A stretch of DNA of 64,000 bases from Bacteriovoracia bacterium (GTDB taxonomy: Bacteria > Bdellovibrionota > UBA1018 > CAIPTA01), in assembly GCA_050246755.1 (NCBI GenBank), contig JBFWVL010000001.1, positions 1,536,001 through 1,600,000 on the forward strand, written 5' to 3'. Each line of letters begins with the position of its first letter. Position 1 is the first letter of the stretch. Below the pieces are notes generated by a model. The model ran no database searches. It had not been told where the DNA came from and saw only the letters and a list, made by a program, of their open reading frames with translations. This document shows, piece by piece, positions 4,172 through 35,756 of this stretch. The translations under genes were made by a program, and so were the position numbers.

Positions 4172-4182
4172 GCCCTAAAACC

Positions 4183-4419: not shown

Positions 4420-4435
4420 TAGGCCTTGCCTTTGC

Positions 4436-8245: not shown

Positions 8246-8506
8246 GACCGAAATTCTCTCGCGTAGGATTTCTGATCTTGTTTCGCAAGTGGCGATATTC
8301 CGTTCCGCGGTTTCACAAAACGCTTTCGTAAGGGAAGGCTTTTCTATTTTATAGGCAAAAGCGAAAAGGTAAGCTTGGCGCGCTTCCTCGTGGCGGCAGG
8401 GAAGATCGGTGAAAGTGGGGATTTCTGTCTGTAGTCTCGGTATGTTCGCCCGGGTGCCCACACACACCGCGGCGAGCGGGATTAAAAATAGAATCTTGTA
8501 GTTCAT
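8231..8506 (-). CDS. small Cys-containing exported hypothetical protein
   Basis: Hydrophobic N-terminus; ATGA overlap with the stop of the upstream TadB/C gene. Confidence 0.5.
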   Translation of the reverse strand: MNYKILFLIPLAAVCVGTRANIPRLQTEIPTFTDLPCRHEEARQAYLFAFAYKIEKPSLTKAFCETAERNIATCETRSEILRERISVLCEL

Positions 8507-17200: not shown

Positions 17201-18327
17201 GTGATGCTTTTCATCCTGTTTCTCAGTCTTTTGGTATTAGCCTCGGTGGCTAGAGAAAATAAATGGCCGCAAGCGATGGTGAATAAGAAAATGAAGGTCG
17301 CCACGATCAGATTAGGCAAGCTCGGCGAGAACTTTTCGATGGGTGAAATCAGCGCGCGGATAAAAACTAAAATCGGCAGGTGCACCACGTAAAGCGAGAA
17401 AGAAAAACCGGCAATGAGCCGCGCGAATCTTGTATATGCCGCTGGTAAGGTTTGGTTATCGAGCATAATGAGGCCGAGCACCAGTGCCCACGTAAAGAAT
17501 CCGGTGATGAAATCTGCATTGAATTCCCCGATGCGCGGGTACAGGGGCCTAATTGCGAAGATTCCCAGGCTAAATAGAGAAATAAGTCTCAGGCCAAGCG
17601 ACTTCCTTCCTAGAATCCAAGATCTAGTGGAGAGGACGAGCGCCAGCACGCCGAGCAACCAGATGGCGAATCTGGCGAGAATCAGGTTATGAAAAATATA
17701 ATTGTATGCCCAAAGCAAGAAAGCAGCTGACAACAGTTTGGGCAGAATTTTTTTGCGAAAAAATAACACGAGCAGAGCTCCAAAAACGGCGTAGTACCAA
17801 AATTCGTAGGTAAGGCTCCAGAGCGCAGAATTGGAGCCAAAGATCGAGCTGCGAATCCCCTGAAGAAATAGCAGAGTGCCGATAAAGCCGTTCCAGCCAT
17901 ATTGCTCGGCGATCACGAAGCCATAGAACTGCTCCATTGGAGCATAATAAAAAGGAGCGGTGCGAGGGATGTTCATGCCCGCGTAGTCGAGGATCGCGGT
18001 GAGAAGGAGCCCGGGGATCACCACAATATAGAGACGGCTGAGGCGCCGCGCGGCGAAGTGAACGATCGAGAATTCGACGAGGGGCCCCCGGCTCACGCTC
18101 GCGGCAATCCAAAAGCCACTCAGTACGAAGAATACGATTACGGCGATATGGCCGAAAGAGGACAAATAGTAGAAAAACGTCAAAAAAAGCCCGGGATGCT
18201 CCAGGCTCTCGAAGGGCGGGAAAAATAGATAACGGAGGTGGCCGGCCACCACCAAGATGGAAGCGAGTCCTCTCAGGAAGTCCAGATGAACCGATGTGGA
18301 GAAGGGTAATTTCACTTTACTGGCCAC
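17194..18327 (-). CDS. acyltransferase family 3 (OafA-like)
   Basis: LDFLRGLASILVVAGH, VFFVLSGF, RRLSRLY, WSLTYEFWYY, SFSLYVVHLP. Confidence 0.92.
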   Translation of the reverse strand: MASKVKLPFSTSVHLDFLRGLASILVVAGHLRYLFFPPFESLEHPGLFLTFFYYLSSFGHIAVIVFFVLSGFWIAASVSRGPLVEFSIVHFAARRLSRLYIVVIPGLLLTAILDYAGMNIPRTAPFYYAPMEQFYGFVIAEQYGWNGFIGTLLFLQGIRSSIFGSNSALWSLTYEFWYYAVFGALLVLFFRKKILPKLLSAAFLLWAYNYIFHNLILARFAIWLLGVLALVLSTRSWILGRKSLGLRLISLFSLGIFAIRPLYPRIGEFNADFITGFFTWALVLGLIMLDNQTLPAAYTRFARLIAGFSFSLYVVHLPILVFIRALISPIEKFSPSLPNLIVATFIFLFTIACGHLFSLATEANTKRLRNRMKSITQ

Positions 18328-20263: not shown

Positions 20264-20339
20264 GGGCGCTTAGCTCAGTTGGCAGAGCGCCACCCTTACA
20301 AGGTGGATGTCGCAGGTTCGACCCCTGCAGCGCCCACCA
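20264..20339 (+). tRNA. tRNA-Val (anticodon TAC)
   Basis: 76-nt cloverleaf: GGGCGCT/AGCGCCC acceptor, GCTC/GAGC D stem, CCACC-CTTACAA-GGTGG anticodon arm, GCAGG-TTCGACC-CCTGC T arm, encoded CCA. Confidence 0.97.
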
Positions 20340-20629
20340 TACCAATACAATTCCCCCGATTACTTCGTTGCCTTACTCGCGCCCCGTTCCGGCGTACTAA
20401 AGTACGCCTCACGGTTGCGCTCCGTCGTCGCCTCGTCTCGGGGGAATTGTATTGGTATGGACCGAACATTTGTTGGGGTCGAAAAGGAGGAGCGACCTGC
20501 GGTGATATCGCGCGAGCGATTTCGCGAAGGGAAGAAAACCCGGAAGGTTTTCTTGGCGACGAAGGAGGGCCCGCGCAGGGAGAGGCAGGAGCCTCAACCG
20601 TAGTGGGCGACCCCTGCAGCGCCCACCAT
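20319..20629. repeat. 22-bp direct repeat of the tRNA 3' end bracketing a structured element
   Basis: CGACCCCTGCAGCGCCCACCAT at 20319-20340 and 20608-20629; perfect 23-bp inverted repeat 20337-20359 / 20438-20460. Confidence 0.9.
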
Positions 20630-21211: not shown

Positions 21212-22299
21212 TGGCCTGATACCCAACGCTACCAGGGAGCCTTGAAGATACTCCGCGTCGGTTAGGCTGTGAACTTAGCGGCAAATTCATTCGGGGTTAG
21301 GTTCCCGAGTGAACTATGCGGCCGATCGCAGTTGTATTCTTCTCGCCACTCTTCGATTCGAACTTTAGCTTCCTGCAAATTTACAATCCATTGGCCGCGC
21401 AAGCATTCATCTCGAAACCTTCCGTTGAACGATTCGACGAACGCATTTTCTACTGGGTTTCCTGGGCGGATAAAATCTAGCTTGATCTCGTTTTGATGGG
21501 TGAAACTGTCGAGGTCTCTGCCGGTAAATTCTGGACCATAGTACGTTATCGATCACGACGGATCTGGGCTTCGCATTTCGGGTAAAGATAATTTTTTCTA
21601 GCACCTGAGCTACGCGAAGACGCTGGCAGCGAAGTATCGACCTCAATCGCTAAGCGCTCCCTCGTAAAATCATCCACGATGTTTAAGCAGCGAAATCTTC
21701 TTCCCGTAGGCCCGAGCTGATCGGACATGAAATTCATCGACCAGCGTTGGTTCGGGCCTTCGGGTGGTGCAATTGGCACTCGAGCCACAGAAACAAGCCG
21801 CTTTCGCTTTCTTACCTTTGAGAGAGAGTTTTTCCTCTCGGTAAATACGGTACACGAGCTTTCTGTTCGATTGAAAGCCATCTCGCCATAGTAGCACATG
21901 CGCCGTACCGCCTCCGATATTCCGCAAGCTCCTTGAGCCTTTTGCGAAGCCCCGGCGGTTCGCTCAAATTTCGCTGGCGGCGAAATGTGGAGCGCTCGAT
22001 CGACACAATTTTGTAGGCTCGGCGCTCCGTAATCTCGTGGGCGCGGATCGCGTGGCTAGTGGCCTCGAGAGCACGCAACTTCTTTACGTCGCCTAGCTCG
22101 AGGCCGCCGAGTTTTTTCTTCCAGTTGTAGATCGTGCCATGGCTTACGCCGTGCTTTCTCGAAACGTCTTTGATCGGCACGCCGCTATCGAGCTCGGCTA
22201 AAGCTTTTAGTTTTTGCTGTCTCCATGGCCCGTTCCGGAACCGTTTATGATGCGGAGCGACTTCAAGGGAAAAATGAAGGCGTTTCGGGTGTCAGGTCA
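21212..22299 (-). mobile_element. degenerate IS3-family insertion sequence
   Basis: Imperfect terminal IRs TGGCCTGATACCC..CCTTGAAG (21212) vs TGACCTGACACCC..CCTTGAAG (rc, 22299). OrfA HTH 'DVSRKHGVSHGTIYNWKKK' and rve fragments '[10 protein letters not shown]','[12 protein letters not shown]' are split across frames. Confidence 0.88.
21260..22226 (-). pseudogene. IS3 transposase orfA/orfB pseudogene (boundaries approximate)
   Basis: Fragments 21812..22180 and 21546..21899 plus a further downstream piece in other frames; the end of orfA is apparently deleted. Confidence 0.8.
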
Positions 22300-22493: not shown

Positions 22494-22934
22494 ATGAGAT
22501 CTGTTTGCTTAGCGCTAAGTTTAATTTTCTGCTCACAAGTTGAAGCAACGACCATGGTGGAGAGCGCCGGTAGAGCCAACCTAGAGGCGGTTAATTCTTG
22601 CCAAGTTCGCGCAAAGTACCTGGGCACCCAGGTGGCGCGTGAGTCATACCTGCGCAAGGGCGTCGCTGGAAGCGTCGACTTTGTTTGGTGGAATTTGGAT
22701 ATTTTTAAGAGCGTTGGCGCAAACTGCCCGACCAACGGGAATACGAAGATTCGCATTCGTAGTGCAGATTTTTCCGGATCGATTAAGTCTCCGAGCATTC
22801 GTTATCCTCTGGAACTTTCCTCGCCAGAGTTGGATTCCGTCATTAGTGCACAACTGCGCTGGGTGGCGGGAAAAGACTCTTTACTGAATCGTGACTATCA
22901 AGAATGGATTCTGGTATCCGTTGATGTGGAATAA
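22494..22934 (+). CDS. exported hypothetical protein
   Basis: Signal peptide ending VEA|T; overlaps the start of the next gene. Confidence 0.65.
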   Translation: MRSVCLALSLIFCSQVEATTMVESAGRANLEAVNSCQVRAKYLGTQVARESYLRKGVAGSVDFVWWNLDIFKSVGANCPTNGNTKIRIRSADFSGSIKSPSIRYPLELSSPELDSVISAQLRWVAGKDSLLNRDYQEWILVSVDVE

Positions 22935-24678
22935 GTTTTTTTTCATTTTATTTTTTTCGTTATTTGCGGCTAAAGAGGCGTCGGCGTTTATTTTTATAAA
23001 GTTCGGCAGCTATTCCCAAGGGGCGGTACCGGTCTCCATGGCGCCCATTTGGCCGACGGGAAGGGTTACCTTTTACGTCAATACCGACACGAGTGCCTAT
23101 GGCGGCAGTCTTACGGAAAAGGTGACGAGTGCCCAGTTTTTAGCCGCGTTCAATGCGGCGGCGGCTACGTGGAATAACCTCTGTAACTCCAAAATTACCG
23201 TCGTTACGGGGGGCACCACCACGAGTGTTCGCAATGCTTCCGATTTAGTGAATACTGTTTCCTACGACAACCGCACGACCGCAGGTGGCAACGCGTTTGC
23301 CAGTTCTAGTATGGTGGCCTGGGCAGTTCCTACTTTGTCCATGGTGTCCGGAAATTACCAATGGACCGACTGCGATATCCAGGTAAACGGTGAAATGGCG
23401 TATACGCTGGGAACTTCAGGCACTACGGACCTCGATCTCCAGAGTATTTTCACCCACGAGATTGGGCATTGCCTCGGGCTCGATCATACCTACGGTACGA
23501 ACTACAACAGCGCCACTTACTGGACGACTAATTCCACCTTGTTGAATTCCGTGATGCGGGGAAGTAGCACCCTGCAGTCTATAGAACAGCGAACGTTGAG
23601 CCAAGATGATATCGATGGGATGCAATGCCTGTATCCGAGCAGCGGAACCTATAGATACGGTTCCTATTGCAGCAGTTATCATGGCACTAACGGCGGCGCG
23701 GCCATCAGCGGCTTGGTGAACGGCGGGGCAGCCTCCACTCGATCCTGCGGCAGCGGAATGAATTCGGGGTTTACTACGAATGGAGAAACGGGCGGAGGTT
23801 GTATTTCTTCGGCGATCGCGGAGGACGGATCGGGACGGACGCCGACTACCGACACGGGCTTGATTTTTGCGCTTTTATTCCCGTTAGTGATATGGGTGTT
23901 CCGGAAGTTTCGAGCTTGGGCGGGCGCATTTTTCGCCGTCGGCTTCTTCTTTGTCCATCCGGCCATGGCCGCGGTAGAAATTGGCTACGACTATTTCAAA
24001 TCCAGCCCGTCGTTGGTGAACCGGGCTACTTCCATTTCTTCGGGCGACGGAAGCTTTAGTTACACTGGATCCACCTCAAAAAAAACGAAGTACAGCTCCC
24101 TGAATGCTTTCTATGGTGCTATTTCTATGGAAAGCGCAGATTCGTCGACGGGGCTTTACTATAGAAGCAATGTTGCCCAGACAGTTTCCCTGCAGGGGTA
24201 TGATTTAGCTAATACTCTGCAGCTCACGAAGGTGAGCAAGCTAGAAGGCTGGAGCGCGGGTGTTGCGAGTAGATGGTATCTCAACTTTTCAGTCGATCCT
24301 TCTGGCGCAGAAGGACGTTCCACCAAATTTTTTTTTGAACTACAGCTAGGCATTGGCCAATCAAACTTTTCGCAAACGATAACCAATAGTAATGGGTTTG
24401 GGGCGGGCAATGGCGACAGTAGTGTTAGCGCCGCGGCTTGGGTTTTAGAAACCAATGCTTTTTTGGGAACGCGCATACCCATTTGGGAACTTCTCGACGC
24501 CGCGCTAAAGGTGGGCTATGCCCGACAGCGCTCTACGGCCTACGTGGTGAGTAGTGCGAGTGGAACGCGATTTTCTGGTGTGAATCCGGGGGAGCGGTTG
24601 TCGTTGCAGGAAGGCCAGGACGCTCGTTTGAGTCGGGGTGGGCTCGGGGGAACGGTTTCGCTGGTGGCTGTATTCTAG
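22924..24678 (+). CDS. matrixin-like (M10) metalloprotease fused to a putative outer-membrane beta-barrel
   Basis: Signal peptide (ASA|F), HEIGHCLGLDH, Met-turn SVM, internal GGGC + TM + RKFR, then amphipathic beta-strands ending in C-terminal Phe; likely start ATG 22924. Confidence 0.75.
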   Translation: MWNKFFFILFFSLFAAKEASAFIFIKFGSYSQGAVPVSMAPIWPTGRVTFYVNTDTSAYGGSLTEKVTSAQFLAAFNAAAATWNNLCNSKITVVTGGTTTSVRNASDLVNTVSYDNRTTAGGNAFASSSMVAWAVPTLSMVSGNYQWTDCDIQVNGEMAYTLGTSGTTDLDLQSIFTHEIGHCLGLDHTYGTNYNSATYWTTNSTLLNSVMRGSSTLQSIEQRTLSQDDIDGMQCLYPSSGTYRYGSYCSSYHGTNGGAAISGLVNGGAASTRSCGSGMNSGFTTNGETGGGCISSAIAEDGSGRTPTTDTGLIFALLFPLVIWVFRKFRAWAGAFFAVGFFFVHPAMAAVEIGYDYFKSSPSLVNRATSISSGDGSFSYTGSTSKKTKYSSLNAFYGAISMESADSSTGLYYRSNVAQTVSLQGYDLANTLQLTKVSKLEGWSAGVASRWYLNFSVDPSGAEGRSTKFFFELQLGIGQSNFSQTITNSNGFGAGNGDSSVSAAAWVLETNAFLGTRIPIWELLDAALKVGYARQRSTAYVVSSASGTRFSGVNPGERLSLQEGQDARLSRGGLGGTVSLVAVF

Positions 24679-24958
24679 GTAAAATTTCGCCTCATCAGGA
24701 ATCAAAATCACTGTTCTCTGAGAAAGCCGCACATTAGAGGGGCCGCTGATATTGCGCGCCTTCTTTGGTTTTCCCGTTCTGCAATTATCTTTAATGACAA
24801 CGCCTTATATTGAAAGCGAGAGATATGTTCGTTATACGGTCAACAAAATGGAGAACATAGCACGCTCTCAATTTGTTCTTTGGCGTCCACCATACTTCTC
24901 CACTTCCCCAAATCCATCGTCATCGCCGCCGCGAATGCTGGAGCATTCGAAATAGAAA

Positions 24959-27900
24959 CTAGTCACTCGTCATCGACTGCATCTGCGCGGCGCTGAGCGC
25001 GCGCGCGCGGTAGGTAAACTTCCTTAAATGTCCATTCAGCTGCTTCGTGAAGGAGCCGCTGCGTCCGCTCGTGCCGATTGCGAAGGAGCGCAGAGTTGGT
25101 TTCGAGGCGCTGCCGCTGAGAGTGGCCGCCGTTCCATTCACTACGGTTCTCAGTTCGCCCGCCGCGCTTTGGCTGAATGCGGCTTGCACGGTTACGCCGT
25201 TGAGGTCGGCGGCATTGGCGTAGGAAGAACTGGCCACGTTCGCGGAGGAAACATCGGCGTTTCCGTTGAAGGTATTGGCAATGGTGGAGAAGTTCGCCTC
25301 GAAGTGATCGGCCGCGCAGGTGGCGCCCGAAGTATTGTCGCAAGCGGAGAAGAGCGTGGGTGTGGCCGCGATCGAGTTCGGCTCATAGCTGGTGCGGCTA
25401 AAATCGAGGATCGCCGTCCAGGCAGAGGGATTGAACCAGTTAGAGAAATTATCCACGGAAATTCCCTCAGCGGCGCGGGTGGCGGTGGTGCCAGCGGTGG
25501 GAATATAGCTCGTAGCAATCGAACCGGCTTCGAGCTGGGCGCCCCAGAGGTAGATGGCACCTAAAGTATCCGCCGCGGAATTTGCCGGGTATACGGCCAC
25601 GGTGGCGAGCCCGGCGTCGGAAGCGTTGGTGGTGAAATTGAGGTGAACGCGGTACCAACCATTGCCCACGGATTCCGCGGTGCCGGCCGAAACGCTCGGC
25701 ACCCCGGCACTCCAGGTGAGGGTAGAAATTTTTCCGGCATTGCCGCTATTGGCGGCGGTGAGCTCGATGAGGGACTGGGAAGAGCTTGCGTTCTTCACGA
25801 AGAAGCTGAGGGTATAGGCCGTGCTCGCTTGCAGCGAAACCGTTTGCGCCACGTGATCGGCGTTCGCGAGGCTGCTCGAAGCGGAAGTGATGGCTTCGGC
25901 ATCAACGCTGCCATCCGGAGAGGTGGTGGTATCGGCAGTTACGCTCACGTTATTGGCCACCCAGGTGGTATCGAAGGCCATCGATCTCACCAAAAGATTG
26001 GTGCGGGATTCTTCGATCAAGAGCCCGCGCGCGGCGCAGGTGCCGGCGCAAGAGGCGGGGTTATGATCGAAGCGCGGAGTGCCCGAAGCGGCGGTTTGCA
26101 TCACGCCGGCGGCGTTGAAATAGGTGGCGGTGCTAGCGCGCGAGAAGGTGAGGCCGCTCGGGAGCGTGCCGTCCAGGAAGTTGAAGTAGAGCACGGCGTC
26201 CTGGATGGTCACGGCGGCGGTAGCGGTGCCGAGGGTGGCGTTCGCTGGATTGGAAATTGTCACGGAGAAATCTTCGTCGGGCTCATCGTCGCCGTCGTCG
26301 GCGGTGGTGACGGAGACCGTGGTGGTAAGAGAGCCGGCGGTGATCGTGGCGGTTCCGGAAACAGCGGTGAAGTCGGTGCCCGCGGAGGCCGTGCCATCCA
26401 CGGTGGTATAGTCTACCGTCACGTCGGAAGAAGAGGCGTGGTTCAAGGTGAGCGTGAAGCCGGCGTTGGCTCCTTCCGTGACGGTGGAGCTATCGGCCGT
26501 GAGAGTGACCGTGGGCGTGGAGTCGGTATTCATGATGGTTCCCGTGGCGGTATTCATGGTGGAGTTCGCGGTCATGCTGAGCGTGAAGGTGAGGTTTCCG
26601 GTATGAGTTCCATCGCTCAGGCTCGTTACGCTCACGGTTTTCGAGGTTTCTCCGGCGGCGTAGGTAAGGGTCCCTGATTTCGCCGTATAGTTCGTACCGG
26701 AAATCGCCGTACCGTTCGAGGTAGCGTAGGTGACGGATGTGGACGAATCGGCGGCGCGGTTCAGCGTTACGGTGAAGGTAAGGTTCGAGCCTTCGCTCGC
26801 GGAAACGTTGCTGGCACTGGCCGTGGGTGCGGCTTCAGTATTCACGATGGTGCCGGTAGCCGTATTCGTAGTGGAGTTCGCCGTCATGCTCAGCGTGAAC
26901 GTGAGGTTCGAGGTGTAAGTTCCATCGGCGAGGCTCGAGACAGTTACCGTCTTCGAGGTCTCTCCCGCGGCGAAGGTGAGAGTGCCCGAAGCCGAAGTAT
27001 AGTTGGTGCCGGAGGCGGCCGTTCCATTCGAAGTGGCGTAGGTGACAGAAGTAGAGGAAGCGGAAGCGCGGTTCAGGTTTACCGTGAAGGTGAGGTCAGA
27101 GCCTTCATTCGCGGAAACGTTGCCCGCGGTAGCCACGGGGGCGGTGTCCGTGTTCGTCACGGTTCCGGTGGCGGTATTCGTAGTAGAATTTGCCGTCAGA
27201 CTCAGAGTGAAAGTAAGGTTCGAAGTATAGGTAGAATCGGCGAGGCTGGAAACCGTTACGGTTTTGGATGTTTCTCCGGCGGCGAACGTGAGGGTTCCGG
27301 AGGCGGCGGTATAGTTTGTTCCCGCTACGGCCGTGCCATTGCTCGTGGCGTAGGTCACGGAGGTAGAGGTGGACGAGGCCCGCGTGAGATTTACGGTGAA
27401 GGTGAGGTCGGAGCCTTCGTTGGCGGAGACGTTGCTGGCGCTCGCCGTGGGGGCAGCGTTCGCGTTTACCACAGTGCCGACCGCGGTGTTCGTAACCGAG
27501 TTCGCGGTGAGGTTCAGGTTGAACGTAAGGTTCGGAGTATAGACACCATCGTCGATGCTCGTGACGTTCACGGTTTTGGAGGTTTCGCCCGCGGCGAAGG
27601 TGAGCGTTCCCGAAGTGGCGCTATAATTCGTTCCGGCGAAGGCGCTATCGCCGACGGTGGCGTACGTTACCGAAGTAGAAGTGGAAGAGGCGCGGCTCAG
27701 GTTCACCGTGAAAGATAGCGTGGCTCCCTCGTTCGCCGAAACGTTGCTGGCGGAAGCGGTGGGCGCGGCGTCGACGTTTACCACCGTGCCGGTGGCGGTA
27801 TTTGTCGTCCCATTAGCCGTGAGGCTTAAGGTGAAATTTAGGTCGGCGGTATACACTGAATCGTTCGCGCTCGAGATGCTCAGCGTTTTAGACGTTTCTC

Positions 27901-30900
27901 CCGCCGCAAAAGTAAGGGTACCAGTTGCGCCCGTATAGTTGGTGCCAGAGATGGCCGTGCCGTTCGAAGTGGCATAGCTCACCGAGGTAGAGGCGGAGGA
28001 AGGCCTCGTTAGATTCACCGTGAAAGTTAAGCTGGAGCCTTCGTTGGCGGACACATTGCTGGCGCTGGCGGTGGGGGCCGCATCGGTGTTCACGATGGTT
28101 CCCGTGGCGGTATTCGTGACGGAATTCGCGGTTACGCTCAGGATGGCCGTGAGGTTGGGGGTATAGGTCCCATCGTTCGCGGTGGAAATATTCAGCGTTT
28201 TCGAGGTTTCTCCTGCCGCGAAGGTGAGGGTTCCGGAGGCGGCAGTATAGTTTATTCCAGAGGCAGCCGTGCCGTTCGAGGTGGCGTAGGTTACCGAGGT
28301 GGAAGTATTGGAGGGGCGATTCAACTCTACGGTGAAAGTGAGGTTGGATCCTTCATTGGCAAATACGTCGCCCGCGCTAGCCGTGGGCGCAGCGTCAGTA
28401 TTGGTGATGGTTCCGACGGCCGCATTCGTGACCGAGTTCGCGATAAGGTTTAAGTTGAACGTAAGGTTCGGCGTATACGTTCCGTCGGCGAGGCTGGTAA
28501 TAGTAACGGTCTTGGAAGTTTCACCTGCCGCGTACGTGAGCGTTCCCGATTTCGCGGTGTAGTTAGTGCCGGCGAAAGCCGTATTGCCAACGGTGGCGTA
28601 GGTTACCGTGGTGGAGGTGGCGGAAGCTCTGTCTAGAGTGACCGTGAAGGTAAGGTCGGATCCCTCGTTGGCGGAAACGTTGCTGGCATTGGCGGTGGGC
28701 GCCGCATCGGTGTTCACGATCGTGCCCGTGGCCGTATTGGTCACAGAGTTCGCCGTCATGCTTAGGGTGAAATTTAAGTCGGCAGTATAAATGGAATCGC
28801 CGGCGCTGCTCACCGTGACGGTTTTGGTCGTTTCCCCTGCGGCGAACGTCAATGTTCCGGAGGCCGCCGTATAGTTGGTGCCGGCGGCGGCAGTTCCGTC
28901 CGAAGTGGCGTAGGTTACTGAAGTAGAAGATGCCGAAGCTCTATTCAGGGTAACGGTGAAGGACAAGCTCGATCCTTCGTTCGCAGATACGTTACCCGCC
29001 GTGGCGGTGGGTGCAGCGTTGGTATTCACCACGGTGCCGGTGGTGGTGTGGGTGACGGAATTGGCCGTTAGGCTCAGCGTGAAGGTAAGGTTGCCCGTGT
29101 GTACTCCATCATTTTGGCTGGCGACAGATACCGTTTTCGAAGTTTCTCCCGCGGCGAAGGTAAGCGTGCCCGAAGCGGCGCTATAGTTTGTGCCTTCTAC
29201 TGCCGTGCCGTCGCTGGTGGCGTAAGTGACCGAAGTGGCCGCCGAAGAGGGTCGGTCCAAGTTTACGGTGAAGGAAAGATTCGATCCTTCGTTCGCCGAG
29301 ACGTTACTCGCCGTGGCTTCGGGCGCCGCGGCGGTATTTACGATCGTACCGGTGGCCGTATTGGTGGTGGCGTTGGCCGTCATGCTCAGCGTGAAGGTAA
29401 GGTTCGGAGTATAGGTGCCGTCGTTTGCGGAAGGAACGGTCACCGTTTTGGACGTTTGCCCCGCGGTAAAAGTTAGGGTTCCCGAGGTGGACGTATAATT
29501 CGTTCCGTTGGCGGCAGTTCCGTCGCTGGTGGCGTAGGTAACGGAGGTGGAAGTCGCAGAAGGGCGGTTCAGATTCACGGTGAACACTAAATTCGAACCT
29601 TCGTTGGCAGACACATTGCTCGCGCTCGCCGTGGGAGCGGCTTCTGTGTTCACCACGGTACCCGTGGCCGTATTCGTGGTGGAATTTGCCGTCAGGCTGA
29701 GGGTGAACGAAAGGTTGGCCGTATAAGTCGTATCCGCCAAAGAGCTTACCGTCAGCGTCTTCGAGGTTTCGCCAGCGGCGAAAGTAAGAGTTCCCGACTT
29801 AGCAGTGTAGTTGGTGCCATCGATCGCGGTCCCGTCGGAGGTGGAGTAGGTGACGGAAGTAGAAGAAGCGGATGCTCGGTTCAAGCTCACCGTGAAGGTC
29901 AGGTCAGATCCTTCATTGGCAGACACATTGCTCGCGGTGGCCACGGGGGCGGCGTTCATATTCACGATCGTGCCGGTAGCCGTATGGGTTACGGAGTTGG
30001 CGGTCATGCTGAGTGTGAACGTGAGATCTGCGGTATGCACGCTATCATTTTGGCTGGAGATGGTGACTGTTTTAGAAGTCTCTCCGGCGGCGAACGTTAA
30101 CGTTCCGGAAGAGGCCGTATAGTTGGTGCCGGAAATCGCGGTGCCATTCGAGGTGGCGTAGGTAACGGAAGTGGAAACCGAAGCCGGTCTATCTAGGCTC
30201 ACCGTAAACGACAAGTCGGATCCCTCATTGGCGGATACGTTGCTCGCCGTGGCTTCGGGTAAGGCATCCGTATTCACCACCGTGCCGGTGGCCGTATTGG
30301 TTACGGAATTCGCGGTGAGGCTTAGCGTGAAGGTAAGATTTGAAGTATATGTGCCATCGTTCGCGGAAGGAACGGTTACGGTTTTCGAGGTTTGGCCCGC
30401 CGTAAACGTGAGGGTTCCCGAAGTGTTCGTGTAGTTAGTACCCGCCACCGCCGTGCCGTTACTGGTGGCGTAGGTGACGGTAGTGGAAGCGGAAGACGCT
30501 CGAGATAGATTCACTGTGAATACTAAGCTGGATCCTTCGTTGGCGGAAACGTTGCTGGCGGAAGCCGTGGGAGCAGCATCGGTGTTTACGATGGTTCCGG
30601 TGGCGGTATTCGCGGTGGAGTTGGCGGTGAGGCTCAGCGTGAAGGTGAGGCTTGGCGTGTAGGTGGAATCGGCGGCACTGTTCACGGTGATCGTTTTCGA
30701 GGTCTCTCCTGCGGCGAAGGTGAGAGTGCCCGAGGCCGAAGTATAGTTCGTTCCATCCACGGCGCTCACGTCGGTGGTCGCGTAGGTTACCGAAGTAGAG
30801 GTAGAGGATGCACGGGTCAAGTTCACCGTGAAGACTAAATTCGATCCTTCATTCGCGGAAATGTCGCTGGCGCTAGCCGTGGGCGCGGCGTTGGTATTTA

Positions 30901-33214
30901 TGATCGTGCCGGTGGCCGTATTACTTACTGAATTCGCCGTTAGACTCAGCGAGAAATCTAGGTCGGCGGTATACGTATTATCGTTTTGGCTCGGCACCGT
31001 AATCGTTTTAGAGGTTTCTCCGGCGGCAAAAGTGAGGGTGCCGGAGGTGGACGTATAGTTTGTTCCCGCGAGTCCGGTTCCGTTGGCCGTGGCGTACACC
31101 ACCGAGGTGGAAACGGAGGACGCACGAGTTAGGTTTACGGTGAAGACCAAGTTCGATCCTTCATTCGCGGAAACGTCGCTGGCGCTAGCCGTGGGCGCGG
31201 CGTCGGTATTTACGATCGTGCCGACGGCAGAATTAGTCACGGAACTCGCGGTGAGATTTAGGTTAAAGGTGAGATCCGGAGAATAAATTCCGTCCGCAAG
31301 GCTGGTTACGGTAACGGTTTTGGAGGTTTCGCCCGCGGCGAAGGTTAAGGTGCCGGAAGTAGCCGTATAGTTCGTGCCGGCAAAAGCCGTGTTCCCCACG
31401 GTGGCATACGTTACGGATGTGGAGGTAGACGAGGACCGATTTAAGTTCACCGTGAAAACCAAATTCGACCCTTCGTTGGCGGAAATGTCCGCCGCGCTCG
31501 CAGTGGGGGCCGCATCGGTGTTCACCACGGTGCCGGTAGCGGTGTTGGTGGTGGAATTCGCCGTGAGGCTCAGGGTGAAAGTGAGGTTTGCGGTAAATAC
31601 CCCATCGACGGTGGTGGGAACAGTTATCGTTTTAGAAGTTTCTCCGGCCGCGAACGTTAAGGTACCTGAAGTGGAGGTATAATTTGTTCCCGCGCTCGCG
31701 GTGCCGTTCGAGGTAGCATAAACAACCGAAGTGGAGATAGACGAGGGGCGGTTCAGGTTCACGGTGAAAGTTACGTTCGAGCCCTCATTCGCTGACGCAT
31801 TTCCGGCGGAAGCGGTGGGCGCGGTGTCTACATTCACCACGGTGCCGGTGGCCGTATTGGTTACGGAGTTTGCGGTCACGCTGAGGGTAAAGCTAAGGTC
31901 TCCGGTGTAAGTGCCGTCGTTTTGGCTAGGCACGGTTAGGGTTTTGGAAGTTTCTCCGGCCGCGAAAGTAAGGGTTCCCGAAGTAGAAGTATAGTTCGTG
32001 CCGGCTACGGCGGTTCCATTCGAAGTAGCATAGGTAACCGCGGTGGCCGAGGCGGAAGGCCTATCTAAATTTACCGTGAATACTAAATTAGATCCTTCGT
32101 TGGCGGACACATTGCTCGAGCTCGCGATCGGTGCCGCATCGGTGTTGACCACCGTGCCGGTAGCCGTATTGGTAGTGGAGTTCGCCGTGAGATTGAGTGA
32201 AAATATTAAGCCGGCTGTGTAGGTGCCATCGTTTTGGGTTGGTACGGTTACGGTTTTGGAGGTTTCGCCCGCCGCGAAAATAAGGGTTCCCGAGGTGGAC
32301 GTATAGTTCGTGCCGGCTACGGCGGTGCCATTGGCCGTGGCGTAGGTCACGGAGGTGGAAGTGGTGGAAGCGCGGTTCAAGTTCACCGTGAAAACGAGAT
32401 TCGACCCTTCGCTGGCGGAAACGTCCGCCGCGCTGGCGGTAGGGGCCGCATCGGTGTTCACCACGGTTCCCGTGGCGGTGGCGTTCACGCCCACGGCGCT
32501 TACACTCAGGGAAAAATTTAAATTCGGCGCATAAATAGAATCGTGAATGGTGGGCACGTTCAGCGTTTTGGAGGTTTCTCCCGGAGCGAATACTAGGCTG
32601 CCGGAGGTGGCCGTATAGTTCACCCCGGCGATCGCGGTTCCGTCCGAAGTTGAGTAGTTAACCGTTTTAGGAAGCGGAGAGGCTTGCGTGAGGTTCACGG
32701 CAAAGCCCACGTTGCTTCCTTCGTTCGCCGAAGCATTGCTGATCACCGCGATAGGATTTCCTTCGAGCACGGTGAGCGTAAACGTAGAGAAAGCAGAATT
32801 GCTGCCGTCGTATACCTGCACGCGCACGGTGCTGGTTCCCCAGTATCCCGAGGAGGGCGTGAGTCTCAGGCTGCACCTCGGGGCCGCACCCCCGCGAACC
32901 ATGTTCATCGGCGTGAGCAAAGTGGGATTGGAGGTGGTTAGAAAGATAGAGCTTTGGCAATTCAGCGGGCTGTCGGGGTCGGCAATCGTGAAATCTACCG
33001 TAGTGCTGGCATCTTGGTTGATTGTCACGTTGCTGATTGAAGAAATCGTGGGAGAGCCGGCCGTATTCTTCGGGGCGGAGGGGGAAGGAGTGCTTTTTTC
33101 GATTTCTTTATCGATGGGATTTGCGCAGGAAGCGAGCGCGAGCAAAGCGAGGCCGAGCCACAACATACGTGCGAGCGCGCTAACAGGGCCCAATAGTAGA
33201 TTCGGTTTATCCAT
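24959..33214 (-). CDS. giant lipoprotein adhesin: Ig/cadherin-like domain, 21 Calx-beta-like repeats, phage/GTA head-spike-like C-terminal domain
   Basis: Lipobox LASC; repeats 'ANEG..L.FTV.L.R....SVTYATSNGTA.AGTNY...SGTLTFAAGETSKT'; C-terminal LTFSRASTATY..PRFD..GLLIEESRTNLL. Confidence 0.9.
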   Translation of the reverse strand: MDKPNLLLGPVSALARMLWLGLALLALASCANPIDKEIEKSTPSPSAPKNTAGSPTISSISNVTINQDASTTVDFTIADPDSPLNCQSSIFLTTSNPTLLTPMNMVRGGAAPRCSLRLTPSSGYWGTSTVRVQVYDGSNSAFSTFTLTVLEGNPIAVISNASANEGSNVGFAVNLTQASPLPKTVNYSTSDGTAIAGVNYTATSGSLVFAPGETSKTLNVPTIHDSIYAPNLNFSLSVSAVGVNATATGTVVNTDAAPTASAADVSASEGSNLVFTVNLNRASTTSTSVTYATANGTAVAGTNYTSTSGTLIFAAGETSKTVTVPTQNDGTYTAGLIFSLNLTANSTTNTATGTVVNTDAAPIASSSNVSANEGSNLVFTVNLDRPSASATAVTYATSNGTAVAGTNYTSTSGTLTFAAGETSKTLTVPSQNDGTYTGDLSFTLSVTANSVTNTATGTVVNVDTAPTASAGNASANEGSNVTFTVNLNRPSSISTSVVYATSNGTASAGTNYTSTSGTLTFAAGETSKTITVPTTVDGVFTANLTFTLSLTANSTTNTATGTVVNTDAAPTASAADISANEGSNLVFTVNLNRSSSTSTSVTYATVGNTAFAGTNYTATSGTLTFAAGETSKTVTVTSLADGIYSPDLTFNLNLTASSVTNSAVGTIVNTDAAPTASASDVSANEGSNLVFTVNLTRASSVSTSVVYATANGTGLAGTNYTSTSGTLTFAAGETSKTITVPSQNDNTYTADLDFSLSLTANSVSNTATGTIINTNAAPTASASDISANEGSNLVFTVNLTRASSTSTSVTYATTDVSAVDGTNYTSASGTLTFAAGETSKTITVNSAADSTYTPSLTFTLSLTANSTANTATGTIVNTDAAPTASASNVSANEGSSLVFTVNLSRASSASTTVTYATSNGTAVAGTNYTNTSGTLTFTAGQTSKTVTVPSANDGTYTSNLTFTLSLTANSVTNTATGTVVNTDALPEATASNVSANEGSDLSFTVSLDRPASVSTSVTYATSNGTAISGTNYTASSGTLTFAAGETSKTVTISSQNDSVHTADLTFTLSMTANSVTHTATGTIVNMNAAPVATASNVSANEGSDLTFTVSLNRASASSTSVTYSTSDGTAIDGTNYTAKSGTLTFAAGETSKTLTVSSLADTTYTANLSFTLSLTANSTTNTATGTVVNTEAAPTASASNVSANEGSNLVFTVNLNRPSATSTSVTYATSDGTAANGTNYTSTSGTLTFTAGQTSKTVTVPSANDGTYTPNLTFTLSMTANATTNTATGTIVNTAAAPEATASNVSANEGSNLSFTVNLDRPSSAATSVTYATSDGTAVEGTNYSAASGTLTFAAGETSKTVSVASQNDGVHTGNLTFTLSLTANSVTHTTTGTVVNTNAAPTATAGNVSANEGSSLSFTVTLNRASASSTSVTYATSDGTAAAGTNYTAASGTLTFAAGETTKTVTVSSAGDSIYTADLNFTLSMTANSVTNTATGTIVNTDAAPTANASNVSANEGSDLTFTVTLDRASATSTTVTYATVGNTAFAGTNYTAKSGTLTYAAGETSKTVTITSLADGTYTPNLTFNLNLIANSVTNAAVGTITNTDAAPTASAGDVFANEGSNLTFTVELNRPSNTSTSVTYATSNGTAASGINYTAASGTLTFAAGETSKTLNISTANDGTYTPNLTAILSVTANSVTNTATGTIVNTDAAPTASASNVSANEGSSLTFTVNLTRPSSASTSVSYATSNGTAISGTNYTGATGTLTFAAGETSKTLSISSANDSVYTADLNFTLSLTANGTTNTATGTVVNVDAAPTASASNVSANEGATLSFTVNLSRASSTSTSVTYATVGDSAFAGTNYSATSGTLTFAAGETSKTVNVTSIDDGVYTPNLTFNLNLTANSVTNTAVGTVVNANAAPTASASNVSANEGSDLTFTVNLTRASSTSTSVTYATSNGTAVAGTNYTAASGTLTFAAGETSKTVTVSSLADSTYTSNLTFTLSLTANSTTNTATGTVTNTDTAPVATAGNVSANEGSDLTFTVNLNRASASSTSVTYATSNGTAASGTNYTSASGTLTFAAGETSKTVTVSSLADGTYTSNLTFTLSMTANSTTNTATGTIVNTEAAPTASASNVSASEGSNLTFTVTLNRAADSSTSVTYATSNGTAISGTNYTAKSGTLTYAAGETSKTVSVTSLSDGTHTGNLTFTLSMTANSTMNTATGTIMNTDSTPTVTLTADSSTVTEGANAGFTLTLNHASSSDVTVDYTTVDGTASAGTDFTAVSGTATITAGSLTTTVSVTTADDGDDEPDEDFSVTISNPANATLGTATAAVTIQDAVLYFNFLDGTLPSGLTFSRASTATYFNAAGVMQTAASGTPRFDHNPASCAGTCAARGLLIEESRTNLLVRSMAFDTTWVANNVSVTADTTTSPDGSVDAEAITSASSSLANADHVAQTVSLQASTAYTLSFFVKNASSSQSLIELTAANSGNAGKISTLTWSAGVPSVSAGTAESVGNGWYRVHLNFTTNASDAGLATVAVYPANSAADTLGAIYLWGAQLEAGSIATSYIPTAGTTATRAAEGISVDNFSNWFNPSAWTAILDFSRTSYEPNSIAATPTLFSACDNTSGATCAADHFEANFSTIANTFNGNADVSSANVASSSYANAADLNGVTVQAAFSQSAAGELRTVVNGTAATLSGSASKPTLRSFAIGTSGRSGSFTKQLNGHLRKFTYRARALSAAQMQSMTSD
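26520..32757 (-). repeat. 20 tandem ~312-bp (104-aa) intragenic repeats
   Basis: Counted 20 ANEG/ASEG units; antisense shadow ORFs recur at multiples of 312 bp (26730, 27042; 29226, 29850, 30474). Confidence 0.92.
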
Positions 33215-33352
33215 AAACCTTCTTCTAGAAATCCGTTTCCTTTAGACGCATCGGGTTTAAGGGAGAAACTCCTTAGAATTCATTCTATTTTTTGGGAAAA
33301 AAGCGCGTAATAGCGAAGTAATTTACTCTATGAGAAATACACGGTTATCGGA

Positions 33353-34258
33353 TCAAAGGTAGAGCTGCAGTAGGGCCGAGTGAGAATAGCGGTAAAGGCC
33401 ATATTCGTAGCCTACGCCAAACCGTGTGCCTAGGCGCCGTTGGATGCCGAAACGATGCCAGGTATCGGGATTTCCCCGGTGATCTCGCTGGAATTTCATG
33501 TTTCCGTATAGGGTCCATTTGGCTTTGGTGAAGCGCAGGCCAACTACGTCGGCGAAGCTCCGTGCGACCGAACTGGAAACCGCGATCCTCGAATAACCTA
33601 GGTAGAACGGGCCGACAGGAAAACCAACGGCGAGGGTGGAAACGGTAATTTTCGGAAGCAGCGTGGAAATGCGCTCGTAGCTTTCCGAATATCCCAGCCC
33701 AATCCCAAAAATCCGTAAAAGAACTCCGGCCTGTGGGGACCAATCTCCGTGCGTGCGCCCCTTTCCTCCAGAGACGCCTACGCTGAGACGTATTCCTTTA
33801 GGAAATAATTTTTTTGGAAAGGCCACGCTAGTCCCGAGGCGAAGACCGAGCGAGGAAGGGGGATTCATTTCGTATTGTTTATATTCTTCCAGCGAAGAGC
33901 TGCCGAGAAAGTGGCTGGGAAGATCGGGTGCCGCGAAGCTGCCTTCCGACCACGACCCGATCCCGAAGCCGATTCCCTCGAATGCCTTGATCGTAGATCC
34001 GGAGAACTTCGCCTTTCCCGCTGGGAACGAGCGATCGGTATACATTCCTTCCACGCCGAAAGGAGTGGGAATGGTGGGTAGGGCCGCCGGATTCGATTCC
34101 ACGGAGTCACCCAGGCGAGAAGAGGAGCCTCCGACCGATGCGCTGGAAAAAGATCCATCGCAGCTCCAGAAAGATTTATCGGCGTTCCAGCCGCAATCTT
34201 CGGCGCCGAAAGCAAGGGGAGAGAAGAAAAATAATAGGAGATAGGCCCGCGGGTGCAT
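33353..34258 (-). CDS. exported protein, probable outer-membrane beta-barrel
   Basis: Signal peptide (AFG|A), NPAAL motif, Gly/aromatic alternating strands, C-terminus LLQLYL. Confidence 0.6.
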   Translation of the reverse strand: MHPRAYLLLFFFSPLAFGAEDCGWNADKSFWSCDGSFSSASVGGSSSRLGDSVESNPAALPTIPTPFGVEGMYTDRSFPAGKAKFSGSTIKAFEGIGFGIGSWSEGSFAAPDLPSHFLGSSSLEEYKQYEMNPPSSLGLRLGTSVAFPKKLFPKGIRLSVGVSGGKGRTHGDWSPQAGVLLRIFGIGLGYSESYERISTLLPKITVSTLAVGFPVGPFYLGYSRIAVSSSVARSFADVVGLRFTKAKWTLYGNMKFQRDHRGNPDTWHRFGIQRRLGTRFGVGYEYGLYRYSHSALLQLYL

Positions 34259-34442
34259 TCCGAAAACAATACTGGGAATCTCGGGATCGGAACAGATTAT
34301 TTCGCTACTCGATGGCGTGGAGGATGAATTTTGCCATCAGCCGGTAGCTCTCGGCGTTTGGATGTTTATCGGGCGATAAGCGGCCGCGGTAGCCGCTGCG
34401 GAGACGTAGTTTCAAAGAAACAGAACCTTTTTAATCATTGCG

Positions 34443-35756
34443 ATGGTACGAATTATAGGGATGGATAAATGGAAAGCCTCCGGCAAAACTTCCGTACTCG
34501 CCGTTTTTTTCTTTTTGCTCTGTTATTTCGTTCATTTCGGGGCAATCTGGAAATACGCCGTGAATATTCCCTCCATGGATGAATGGGAGGCGCTGAATGA
34601 CAACGCCTTGATTGCACCCTCCTTTCGCTGGTTCTTTGCCAAGCACAACGAGCACATGATCGCTCCAACTAAATTGCTGGCTTGGCTGCTCCTTCACCTG
34701 AACGGCTGGAATATCCGAAGCTCTATTCTGCTGAGCTTTGGAATTTTTGGGCTATTGGTGGCCTCGGTGGTAGTGGTGGGCCGGAGACTGATGTTTGCCC
34801 TTCCGCTTTGGGCCGTGCTTGCCTTTTGCCTATTTTTACTTTCCACGCTGCCGAGCGAAAATCATATGTGGGGGTTTCAGTCTCAGTTCCATTTCTTTCT
34901 TCTATTTAAAGTGATCGCCATTTTATTTTTGTTCGATTCGCGTCAGGGCTGGCCCGCGGTTTTCCTCGGCACGCTGGCGCTGGCCGCTTCGATCGTTTCA
35001 TTTTCGGCGGGCGTGGCTTCCGCCGCTGCGCTACTGGCGATTTTCGTACTTTTCAAGTGGCATCGTTTTTCGAAAATCAGAGGATGGGATAAGCGGGAGC
35101 TTCAGCAGCTGGTTTTTACCGTGACGATTACCGCGGTGGTTATGTTGTTTTGGTGGAGCGTGCCAGGCCCATCAGTTCCTTTCAGTTACCCCACGGGGAT
35201 GATTTTTTGGCGCATGCTGTTTCGGATGGTCGGATGGGGATACGGTCTTTTCGCGGTCTCCCCATTTCCAGTATTTCTGGGTTTTTTATTCGCTGGCGCG
35301 CTGCCGCTGTTGCTGATCTGGCGGCGAAGCGAGATTGGTCTCACGGAGAAAGCCATGATCACGGCCTGTATTGGCTCCACCCTGGCCGAGCTGTCGGCTA
35401 TCTCCTTGGGGCGCGGATATTTCGGCCAGCTATTCGTGATCTACCGCTATACCGAGGTCGCCTTCCTCCTTGTGCCCTGGAGCGCTTTCGCCTGGGCCAT
35501 GGCGCTGGAGAAAGAAAAAATCGCGCGTTCATTCGTGCTTGCAGGTTTGTGGATTTTTTTCGCGGTTAACTTTTCCGCTTATCTAGGAACCGAGGCCTAC
35601 GAAGGGATCCGAAATTGGCGCCGGCACGGAGTCGATTGCCTTGAGTCCGCGAACCGGCGCGGTGGAGAAATTCGCTGCGAAGCCCTCTACCCAGGCCCGC
35701 TCAATCATCGCCTAGAAAATGCCCGTGTGTTGAATATCTCTTTTACGCGCCGCTGA
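34443..35756 (+). CDS. polytopic membrane protein, GT-C-fold glycosyltransferase-like
   Basis: First TM followed by IPSMDEWE and HNEH loop; about 11 TMs. Confidence 0.55.
   Translation: MVRIIGMDKWKASGKTSVLAVFFFLLCYFVHFGAIWKYAVNIPSMDEWEALNDNALIAPSFRWFFAKHNEHMIAPTKLLAWLLLHLNGWNIRSSILLSFGIFGLLVASVVVVGRRLMFALPLWAVLAFCLFLLSTLPSENHMWGFQSQFHFFLLFKVIAILFLFDSRQGWPAVFLGTLALAASIVSFSAGVASAAALLAIFVLFKWHRFSKIRGWDKRELQQLVFTVTITAVVMLFWWSVPGPSVPFSYPTGMIFWRMLFRMVGWGYGLFAVSPFPVFLGFLFAGALPLLLIWRRSEIGLTEKAMITACIGSTLAELSAISLGRGYFGQLFVIYRYTEVAFLLVPWSAFAWAMALEKEKIARSFVLAGLWIFFAVNFSAYLGTEAYEGIRNWRRHGVDCLESANRRGGEIRCEALYPGPLNHRLENARVLNISFTRR

Follow-up and report, generated by a model that had tools for sequence, protein, structure and literature searches.

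A giant, putatively lipid-anchored Calx-beta protein of a Bdellovibrionota bacterium ends in a unit homologous to gene transfer agent and phage fibre proteins

Introduction

According to its structural report, the head spike of the Rhodobacter capsulatus gene transfer agent (RcGTA) is built from a pentamer of Rcc01079 and a single flexible Rcc01080 subunit held by residues 2–10, the only ones of its 325 residues that were resolved; the fibre attaches through a short N-terminal (iso)leucine/glycine repeat peptide plugged into the pentameric base (PMC7296036). Disruption of rcc01080 was described as lowering gene transfer by about two-thirds and impairing adsorption, and Hynes et al. argued for a phage origin of this gene, which has homologues in phages and a patchy distribution among bacteria (PMC5026251). 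Fused to mNeonGreen, Rcc01080 bound about 100% to wild-type capsulated R. capsulatus and about 4% to a capsule-less mutant, and binding rose again in a capsule-restored strain (PMC10218006). Here we analyse a 64,000-nucleotide stretch of contig JBFWVL010000001.1 (positions 1,536,001–1,600,000; hereafter the window), which lies within contig C1 of the 3.55-Mb, 10-contig genome of a Bacteriovoracia bacterium of the phylum Bdellovibrionota, and in which one gene encodes a giant Calx-beta repeat protein, P0001, that ends in a homologue of Rcc01080.

Predatory and Bdellovibrio-like bacteria need to recognise many kinds of cell surface, and to our knowledge the trimeric, phage-tail-fibre-like MAT proteins are the only recognition proteins characterised so far. 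That cells can put adhesive modules of phages to new use is thus not new for Bdellovibrio. The MAT proteins are described as trimeric beta-helix/beta-prism fibres in which the signal peptide is followed by a conserved N-terminal domain of ~130 aa; their tips have S74, TNF-like, C-type-lectin or novel trimeric folds, and one member binds glycan (PMC10769870). The baseplate protein gp45 of phage E217, which also enters the comparison below, is described as a 'triplex' subunit that holds the tail fibre (PMC10329688). Our literature search found no paper describing a head-spike-type tip on a Calx-beta stalk adhesin.

Homology of the tip to gene transfer agent and phage proteins

P0001 is encoded at 24959–33214 on the minus strand by an open reading frame (ORF) of 2,751 codons that is intact over 8.2 kb. 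The product begins with a lipoprotein-type signal and a weak Ig-like match, continues with 21 Calx-beta domains and ends in a tip of ~410 residues. A preliminary description, made from the letters of the window, had likened this tip to phage and gene transfer agent head-spike fibres. The motifs on which it drew (LTFSRASTATY, TAASGTPRFD, GLLIEESRTNLL, YLWGAQLEAGSIATSYIPT, ATRAA and LNGHLRKFTYRARALS) all lie within the last ~410 residues, and the likeness was borne out by matches to phrog_5939, NF048003 and Rcc01080 far beyond chance.

As the query we used 446 residues (24962–26299, minus strand), to which 'tip numbering' refers below. Residues 37–445 of the query matched phrog_5939 in PHROGs, annotated 'tail protein', with an E-value of 1.1e-57, and phrog_1419 (8e-24) and phrog_34853 (2.4e-17) were matched as well. 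The phrog_5939 match was limited to profile positions 357–762 of 801, which is membership at the domain level, the N-terminal half of the phage family being absent. Against NCBIfam NF048003 (GTA_spike_fiber), tip residues 94–277 covered the profile from 1 to 182 of 182 with an E-value of 9.2e-40 and 137.1 bits, compared with a curated cut-off of 36, which places the tip in this family; when the whole of P0001 was searched, the match had 133 bits and fell on residues 2399–2582. Tip residues 40–282 aligned with residues 33–277 of 325 of the PDB chain 6tb9_F3, 'Head spike fiber Rcc01080', at 5.9e-24, and a profile made from an alignment of 32 homologues (A1) lifted this match to 3.7e-70. The A1 profile also found Pa193 gp46 'baseplate wedge 2' (4.6e-27), E217 gp45 (7.1e-27) and a gp17 tail fibre (2.7e-19), and gave a weak match to the carbohydrate-binding module (CBM) of the NanA sialidase (0.0049). 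In Pfam, CBM_4_9 was matched at 0.017, below its cut-off, and neither CBM40 nor Laminin_G was found for the tip. At the level of sequence, we regard true homology as secure, both with the RcGTA head-spike fibre and with tail and structural proteins of phages.

Homology over tip residues 40–282, together with the full match to the NF048003 model, relates the tip to Rcc01080 (GhsB; PDB 6TB9/6TBA), which the cited accounts portray as a single-subunit, flexible, distal binding module with capsule-dependent cell binding (PMC7296036, PMC10218006). The settings differ. Rcc01080 is a 325-aa virion protein, whereas in P0001 the unit closes a stalk protein of 2,751 aa whose gene has no virion genes around it. 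Rcc01080 has 48 residues beyond the aligned part, where P0001 has instead a full second domain of 170 residues, and a free N-terminal plug peptide of the RcGTA type is absent from P0001, in which 2,340 stalk residues precede the homologous region. Stand-alone phage proteins of phrog_5939 and phrog_1419 (Synechococcus phages S-WAM2 and S-CAM4; IMG/VR) resemble the tip over residues 50–445 with 30–43% identity and share its order of N-segment, domain 1, conserved junction motif, domain 2 and protein end. Unlike P0001, these proteins are short, lie among head and tail genes and have no Calx-beta stalk. The only solved structures homologous to domain 1 are those of the baseplate wedge proteins E217 gp45 and Pa193 gp46 (PDB 8ENV, 9B45; 25–26% identity); there, the domain sits inside a 500-aa baseplate subunit and not distally, and domain 2 has no counterpart.

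Predicted fold of the tip

The tip can be divided into three parts. An N-terminal segment with a CxxxC pair, residues 2342–2401 (26012–26191, minus strand), is conserved in the family and aligns to Rcc01080 33–90. Domain 1, residues 2402–2578 (25481–26011, minus strand), holds the GTA_spike_fiber core and is assigned as a CBM4/16-like jelly roll from NF048003 and VIA-align. Domain 2, residues 2582–2751 (24962–25471, minus strand), is assigned by VIA-align as a CBM40/LamG-like jelly roll; it contains a Cx7C pair and ends the protein. An AlphaFold2 model of the tip, calculated with the A1 alignment, was of moderate quality, with a mean predicted local distance difference test score (pLDDT) of 70.6 and a predicted template modelling score of 0.48. 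Its cores were well predicted at ~100–260 and ~290–446 (tip numbering), and it was poor in the N-segment (pLDDT below 60) and at the junction, 266–285.

Foldseek searches with this model retrieved laminin LG pairs, the Pa193 and E217 baseplate chains and CBM40 modules from the PDB, and phage 'Concanavalin A-like lectin/glucanase' and tail-fibre proteins from BFVD (E-values 1e-20 to 1e-14). In VIA-align, tip 73–273 matched Pa193 gp46 with Z 19.4 (root-mean-square deviation 3.2, 183 residues aligned, 26% identity), E217 gp45 with Z 16.4, and CBM16, CBM4-2 and a porphyran CBM with Z 13–14. Tip 277–446 matched the CBM40 of NanC with Z 17.2 (root-mean-square deviation 2.5, 158 aligned, 15% identity), an R. 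gnavus CBM40 with Z 16.4, and PAPP-A LamG and pentraxins with Z 14–15. Because VIA-align splits the model into two separately matching domains, the tip is read as two tandem lectin-like jelly rolls, the first of them CBM4/16-like and the second CBM40/LamG-like. The C-terminal part had earlier been called LamG-like from its letters, and the fold supports this (CBM40, LamG and pentraxin modules, Z 14–17). The likeness to CBM40, the lectin modules of sialidases, and to CBM4/CBM16 is one of fold (domain 2 Z 14–17, domain 1 Z 13–14) at 10–19% identity, and neither family is reached at the curated threshold.

Could the tip be an enzyme of the ConA-like superfamily, a polysaccharide hydrolase or lyase that is carried on a stalk and degrades capsule or exopolysaccharide? 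Nearly invariant columns of the family N-segment are R76, D78, P81, G92–L94, E96, R99 and N101 (tip numbering), and the nearly invariant R76, D78, E96, R99, N101, Q255, E257, Y265, R275 and D278 could form an active site; moreover, the BFVD neighbours are annotated 'Concanavalin A-like lectin/glucanases superfamily'. The best structural matches, however, are non-catalytic (CBM40, CBM16, CBM4-2, LamG, pentraxin and phage baseplate domains), Pfam and NCBIfam gave no glycoside-hydrolase or lyase family for the tip at E-values up to 1, and it is cell binding, not degradation, that is described for Rcc01080 in the available account (PMC10218006). We consider a catalytic tip quite improbable.

Short-range Cys pairs occur in the N-segment of seven of eight clade members and in domain 2 of all eight, and these conserved pairs fit with an extracytoplasmic protein. 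Compared with four close relatives, P0001 is 60% identical in the last two Calx-beta domains, 71% in the N-segment, 56% in domain 1 and 62% in domain 2. Against far clade members, domain 1 is the most variable part (29%; other parts 39–57%), as would be expected of a determinant of specificity, though this is weak evidence.

Stalk and N-terminal anchor

The stalk spans residues ~150–2340 (26195–32767, minus strand). Pfam PF03160 recognised Calx-beta domains in 21 stretches upstream of the tip (E-value 1.1e-283; 922.8 bits compared with a cut-off of 27, the gathering threshold thus being passed), and the scan of the own genome also saw all 21; the preliminary description had counted its 21-domain stalk correctly. 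About 19 of the domains form a tandem array at the DNA level, with a period of 312 bp and 19.1 copies at 26505–32476 (Tandem Repeats Finder). Since the repeats share only 68% matches in their DNA, collapse or chimerism of the stalk during assembly is unlikely. In the own genome, Calx-beta domains are found in the adhesin ORF and in one 1,182-aa frame only.

The tip was correctly placed at the far end of this stalk; the opposite end carries a lipoprotein-type signal. The signal peptide (33125–33214, minus strand), read from the translation, has a lipobox-like LASC motif with Cys30 after a hydrophobic stretch, and the motif is kept in the orthologues P0002 (LTAC) and G005/P0147 (FTAC). Of 18 distinct proteins with the tip, from Bdellovibrionota genomes or metagenomes, 10 have, as a motif-level reading, a lipobox-like motif behind a hydrophobic stretch; among those without it, one is partial and two begin inside an Ig domain. 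We infer from the motif that the N-terminus of P0001 is putatively anchored by lipid. Residues 55–148 (32771–33052, minus strand) gave a weak match to the Ig-like Big_9 domain (PF17963; E-value 0.0029, 18.9 bits, under the cut-off of 23.6). A search with residues 1–160 among shorter proteins found this Ig-like region in seven that otherwise have unrelated architectures. Five of the seven have precomputed PF17963 matches and other repeat domains, and the sharers include P0288, with Calx-beta and LapA, and P0289, with PA14, cadherin-like and Big_2 domains.

Giant repeat adhesins of the RTX/type 1 secretion system (T1SS), LapA type combine a long tandem beta-sandwich stalk with a distal ligand-binding region and a repeat number that varies among strains. 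Compared with these, P0001 appears to be lipid-anchored at its N-terminus, so that the C-terminus and not the N-terminus would be distal. Pfam gave no RTX or T1SS signal in P0001. A promoter and terminator scan of 24500–34500 returned no more sites than shuffled sequence.

Relatives in the Bdellovibrionota

In the GTDB family of the source organism, four of nine genomes (its own included) carry the domain, all of them in its own genus, one of four; in a sample of the phylum, the domain is sporadic, occurring in 19 of 301 genomes and 15 of 170 genera. The own genome has a single NF048003 match. Orthologues of P0001 with 54–60% identity were found in three same-genus genomes and among metagenome proteins, and homologues with 54–58% identity on contigs of a Bdellovibrionales bacterium. 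The Prokaryotic Genome Annotation Pipeline (PGAP) already recognises the domain in a relative: at 72% identity, the database entry nearest to P0001 bears the name 'phage head spike fiber domain-containing protein, partial [Bdellovibrionota bacterium]'. The neighbours of the tip genes at Bdellovibrionota loci L180–L187 are non-phage by ORF inspection, and four of those neighbours were scanned with Pfam.

Among these relatives, it is the type of stalk and the number of repeats that vary, and not the tip. The count of Calx-beta domains is 21 in P0001, 12 in P0002, 7 in G005/P0147, 4 in P0207 and 1 in G007 and P0224, and a protein of G024 has one match slightly under the cut-off. The orthologue in G003 is a stalk-plus-tip fusion whose frame is cut by the contig end. 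Elsewhere in the phylum, the same C-terminal unit is found on stalks of Big_1, Invasin_D3 and fn3 (G234), of Big_13, Big_3_3 and LamG (G281), and on stalks without a Pfam match (G286, G283 and G209). Identity to the G005 orthologue is even along the entire protein (56–59%). The preliminary description had proposed looking for swapping of tips among relatives; we saw no sign of it, because stalk and tip show similar identity between orthologues. The N-terminal 260 residues of P0001 had no match in G004, G006, G001, G002 and G008, a weak negative as two of these genomes are fragmented or 76–90% complete.

We calculated two unrooted trees, one with FastTree from 176 full units and one with IQ-TREE ('quick', LG+G4) from 125 units; the latter comprised all Bdellovibrionota and Calx-beta rows, a random 28 of 80 viral and 10 other metagenome rows, and non-duplicate named-genome units. 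In both, the P0001 tip falls in a starred clade of 10 rows with a support of 99 (SH-aLRT), a type of support that in quick and FastTree runs can be inflated by long branches. This clade holds only rows from Bdellovibrionota genomes, Calx-beta-bearing metagenome proteins and P0027, and neither tree places a viral-contig row or a row from another phylum inside it. Two more starred clades are dominated by Bdellovibrionota, one of 11 rows (99) and one of 13 rows (95); of these two, one holds giant multi-unit proteins of G148 and metagenome relatives. The 13-row clade contains G058 and metagenome-assembled genomes (MAGs) labelled Micavibrio, Pseudobdellovibrionaceae and Bdellovibrionales, plus rows labelled Alphaproteobacteria, Proteobacteria and Rhodospirillaceae. 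The trees point to a lineage-specific residence of the tips and give no direction of transfer.

The giant multi-unit proteins are those of G148 (L008/L023), P0008 and P0211, Oligoflexia MAG proteins of 3,510 and 2,656 aa with Big_1, Invasin_D3 and Calx-beta domains. Each has three full tip units and extra copies of the core, and units at equivalent positions cluster in the tree.

Relation to the MAT proteins

P0001 resembles the MAT proteins in its general idea, a phage-related, putatively adhesive module at the C-terminal tip of a long and presumably surface-exposed protein in a Bdellovibrio-type bacterium. Unlike them, it has a Calx-beta stalk, a lipobox-like motif and a double jelly-roll tip. 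Pfam found no S74 domain (PF13884) in P0001, and BLASTP of residues 1–400 against a MAT-like S74 protein of G058 gave an E-value of 0.73, that is, no similarity. We therefore rejected membership of P0001 in the MAT group: its stalk is Calx-beta only, S74 is absent and its N-terminus is unrelated to the MAT-like protein of G058, the MAT proteins of B. bacteriovorus themselves being compared by description. The statement of the preliminary description that P0001 differs from the trimeric Bdellovibrio fibres stands (no beta-helix, no S74 and the unrelated N-terminus).

The own genome also encodes, at locus L188 (G000:C1) 2750–5107 on the minus strand, a 786-aa fibre-like protein that ends in Peptidase_S74 and resembles the S74 class of MAT proteins. 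It has a cellular context, beside an HtrA-like protease and a LysM protein, and is 26% identical to the S74 lipoprotein of G058 (E-value 6e-31). In G058, locus L186 (G058:C2) 1522–9348 encodes in tandem this 1,219-aa S74 lipoprotein, a 949-aa paralogue-like lipoprotein with the same N-terminus and, directly after these two fibre-like lipoproteins, a secreted protein of 451 aa with little else but the tip unit. The S74 protein of the own genome and the gene trio of G058 are two circumstantial links to the MAT repertoire.

The unit in phages and the direction of transfer

An exhaustive HMMER search returned 30,868 cluster representatives at E-values of 1e-3 or below, 2,929 of them at 1e-30 or below, and many were multi-copy. 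By tblastn, the unit was found in 78 phage records, annotated as tail protein, tail fibre or minor tail protein, including Synechococcus, Rhodobacter (RcapMu), Rhizobium, Nonlabens, Escherichia, Salmonella and Campylobacter phages. In IMG/VR, at least 598 stretches encode a relative of the tip among 619 pattern-matched stretches listed; the best of the matches listed had 43% identity, and most spanned tip 50–445, that is, both domains. L026, L028 and L029 are viral contigs on which a homologue of 420–470 aa is encoded beside genes for major head, portal, terminase, scaffold or tail-fibre proteins. Viral-contig carriers, taken as stop-to-stop frames, have a median length of 478 aa, and the unit often begins within their first 20–100 residues.

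A hidden Markov model of the whole unit identified 359 full-length units among the sequences collected, and 297 of them finish no more than 15 residues from the end of the ORF. In multi-copy proteins, only the core of domain 1 is repeated internally, and the full unit stays at the end. The median number of Cys residues per viral unit is 2; the two Cys pairs of the P0001 clade are not general in phages.

We consider it most likely that the module was acquired from phages, early in this Bdellovibrionales lineage; this direction is inferred only because the diversity of the unit in phages is far larger. The reverse can be argued, with the double jelly roll as an old cellular pair of CBMs that phages have borrowed, so that the adhesin tip would not be a domesticated viral module. 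The CBM4/16 and CBM40 folds are cellular in origin, and the Bdellovibrionota tips sit in starred clades of their own, the 10-row clade being free of viral and other-phylum rows; the trees, moreover, are unrooted. The unit is nevertheless sporadic in the phylum and confined to one of the four family genera, phages that infect hosts of many phyla carry it in large numbers and great diversity, and the surroundings of the adhesin gene are a variable region without synteny, next to a tRNA gene (see below). Hynes et al. likewise argued for a phage source of rcc01080 (PMC5026251). Borrowing by phages from cells is, in our view, unlikely.

Possible function of P0001

We favour, and hold as probable, the reading that P0001 is a cell-surface adhesin whose virus-type double-lectin unit, as its distal tip, binds extracellular polysaccharide. 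Glycan binding by the tip is plausible, being predicted from the fold and from the capsule-dependent binding of Rcc01080. The lipid would hold the N-terminus of P0001 in the outer membrane. A beta-sandwich spans about 4 nm per domain, and on this figure the 21-domain stalk would reach roughly 80–100 nm. The distal tip would bind capsule, lipopolysaccharide (LPS) or exopolysaccharide on another cell or surface, and its specificity is most likely determined by domain 1, which diverges fastest. The short N-terminal peptide that attaches the unit in virions would be replaced in P0001 by the stalk.

Several points weigh against this reading. The model is only moderate, its pLDDT falling under 50 in the N-segment and at the junction between the domains, and the most conserved family residues fall in segments that it does not resolve. 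A shared fold alone does not establish function, and glycan binding by P0001 or its close relatives is predicted from homology and fold. The homologous domain of E217 gp45 lies in a baseplate wedge, and a glycan role is not among the functions given in the accessible part of that report (PMC10329688). Lipidation and surface exposure are read from the motif alone. The direction of transfer cannot be read from unrooted trees with separate deep Bdellovibrionota clades. Finally, the source organism is an uncultured MAG, for which a predatory lifestyle is conjectural.

This last point also speaks for a different ligand, in which the tip would bind exopolysaccharide of the organism itself, the matrix of a biofilm, or a surface, be it eukaryotic or abiotic, and would serve attachment or matrix anchoring and not the recognition of prey or other bacteria. 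Giant Calx-beta and Ig-repeat adhesins generally serve attachment to surfaces and in biofilms. Polysaccharide-modifying genes lie 5–8 kb from the adhesin gene: an Acyl_transf_3 O-acetyltransferase gene at 17194–18327 (minus strand), for polysaccharide O-acylation, and an MBOAT gene (AlgI/DltB type) at 38402–39865, within a polysaccharide O-acylation region at 36569–39865 (plus strand). Furthermore, rcc01080 itself is described as adjoining the capsule genes of its own host (PMC5026251). Circumstantial evidence on the other side comes from the two S74 loci above, namely the relationship of the S74 fibre-like protein of the own genome to the MAT-like protein of another Bdellovibrionota bacterium, and the tip-only homologue of G058 directly after two fibre lipoproteins, one of them with S74; both hint at a set of adhesins of predator type. 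A ligand of this other kind is possible, but we are inclined to doubt it. If the tip binds the matrix of its producer, P0001 would be an ordinary giant adhesin with an unusual tip.

A more far-reaching form of the favoured adhesin reading is that Bdellovibrionota recruited a monomeric receptor-binding unit of phage virions as the tip of lipid-anchored adhesins, giving a second phage-related prey-recognition system that is independent of the MAT proteins, with P0001 as a tether of ~80–100 nm that captures prey capsule or LPS before contact. We put this forward tentatively and think it rather unlikely as a whole. The stalks so recruited would range from 1 to 21 Calx-beta domains in the P0001 clade and would be Ig-like or of unknown type elsewhere. 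Apart from this more far-reaching form, the P0001 locus follows the logic of the MAT proteins with a different construction, a probably monomeric, putatively lipid-anchored Calx-beta stalk with a two-lectin unit of the type by which phages and a gene transfer agent bind their hosts. If the tip binds foreign capsule or LPS, it would be another case of cellular reuse of receptor-binding modules of virions, and a compact, probably monomeric module of ~400 aa with tens of thousands of sequence clusters to mine for glycan specificity. The P0001 tip is a well-delimited cellular version, and would be a convenient target for the first experimental structure of the full two-domain unit of this family.

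Genomic setting

The earlier statement that the adhesin gene has no phage genes in its vicinity holds. Neither Pfam in 18 neighbouring ORFs nor PHROGs in 11 found phage structural genes, and PHROGs matched only a transposase fragment and an O-acetyltransferase among these 11. By Pfam, the neighbours are housekeeping and envelope genes (M16 peptidases, Lon, BipA, TrmO and an S37 peptidase). A prophage was rejected on the same grounds, as no phage genes flank the adhesin gene in either search.

Synteny with the same-genus genome G005 covers the M16 peptidases, Lon, BipA and tRNA-Val and stops directly past tRNA-Val. None of the 19 window proteins besides the giant adhesin was matched at the G005, G003 or G007 loci, and the G005 and G007 orthologues are located elsewhere, with no neighbours in common with the window. 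Because synteny stops at tRNA-Val and the orthologues lie elsewhere, the adhesin gene is assigned to a variable region beside a tRNA gene. The edge of this region (20264–20628, plus strand; ARAGORN and repeat search) consists of tRNA-Val(tac) at 20264–20339 and a direct repeat of its 3' 21 nt (20319–20339), which recur exactly at 20608–20628, 289 bp downstream, with 0 such repeats expected by chance. This looks like the scar of a small element that had integrated at, or been excised from, a tRNA attachment site. Between the two copies, an inverted repeat of ~18 nt can be seen by eye at about 20342–20360 and 20440–20458.

A degraded insertion sequence lies at 21300–22250 (minus strand), ~3 kb from the adhesin gene, in the low-GC stretch of the window (0.493). 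It contains a fragment of an rve integrase core at 21546–21899 (minus strand; Pfam E-value 1.3e-5, below the cut-off; phrog_157 transposase 1.7e-6), and the ORF upstream of this fragment, 21812–22180, had no match. This fragment, the repetitiveness of the gene and the MAG-like assembly in 10 contigs are what one would cite for an artefact or a relic, that is, a mis-assembled chimera of a repeat protein and a prophage fibre gene, or a decaying prophage remnant. Such an origin is very improbable indeed, given the 8.2-kb frame without interruption, repeats that match each other at only 68%, the lack of flanking phage genes, and the independent occurrence of the stalk-plus-tip fusion in G005, G003, P0002 and P0207.

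Several neighbouring genes were recorded in addition. A metalloprotease-like protein of 595 aa is encoded at 22891–24678 (plus strand) by a gene convergent with that of the adhesin; it matched Matrixin, M66 and reprolysin weakly and a myxosortase-dependent metalloprotease family faintly, far under the cut-off. P0286 (33353–34258, minus strand) is a 301-aa protein encoded on the same strand as the adhesin gene and 139 bp upstream of it. It has a signal-peptide-like start and glycine/aromatic-rich, beta-strand-like segments, and gave no Pfam, PHROG or NCBIfam match; it could, judging from these features, be an outer-membrane protein co-transcribed with the adhesin, and a counterpart was not found beside the G005 orthologue. 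P0287 (34443–35756) is a multi-pass membrane protein with no family match, and the ORF preceding the MBOAT gene, 37383–38450, matched DUF1574 weakly (E-value 0.00021, below its cut-off).

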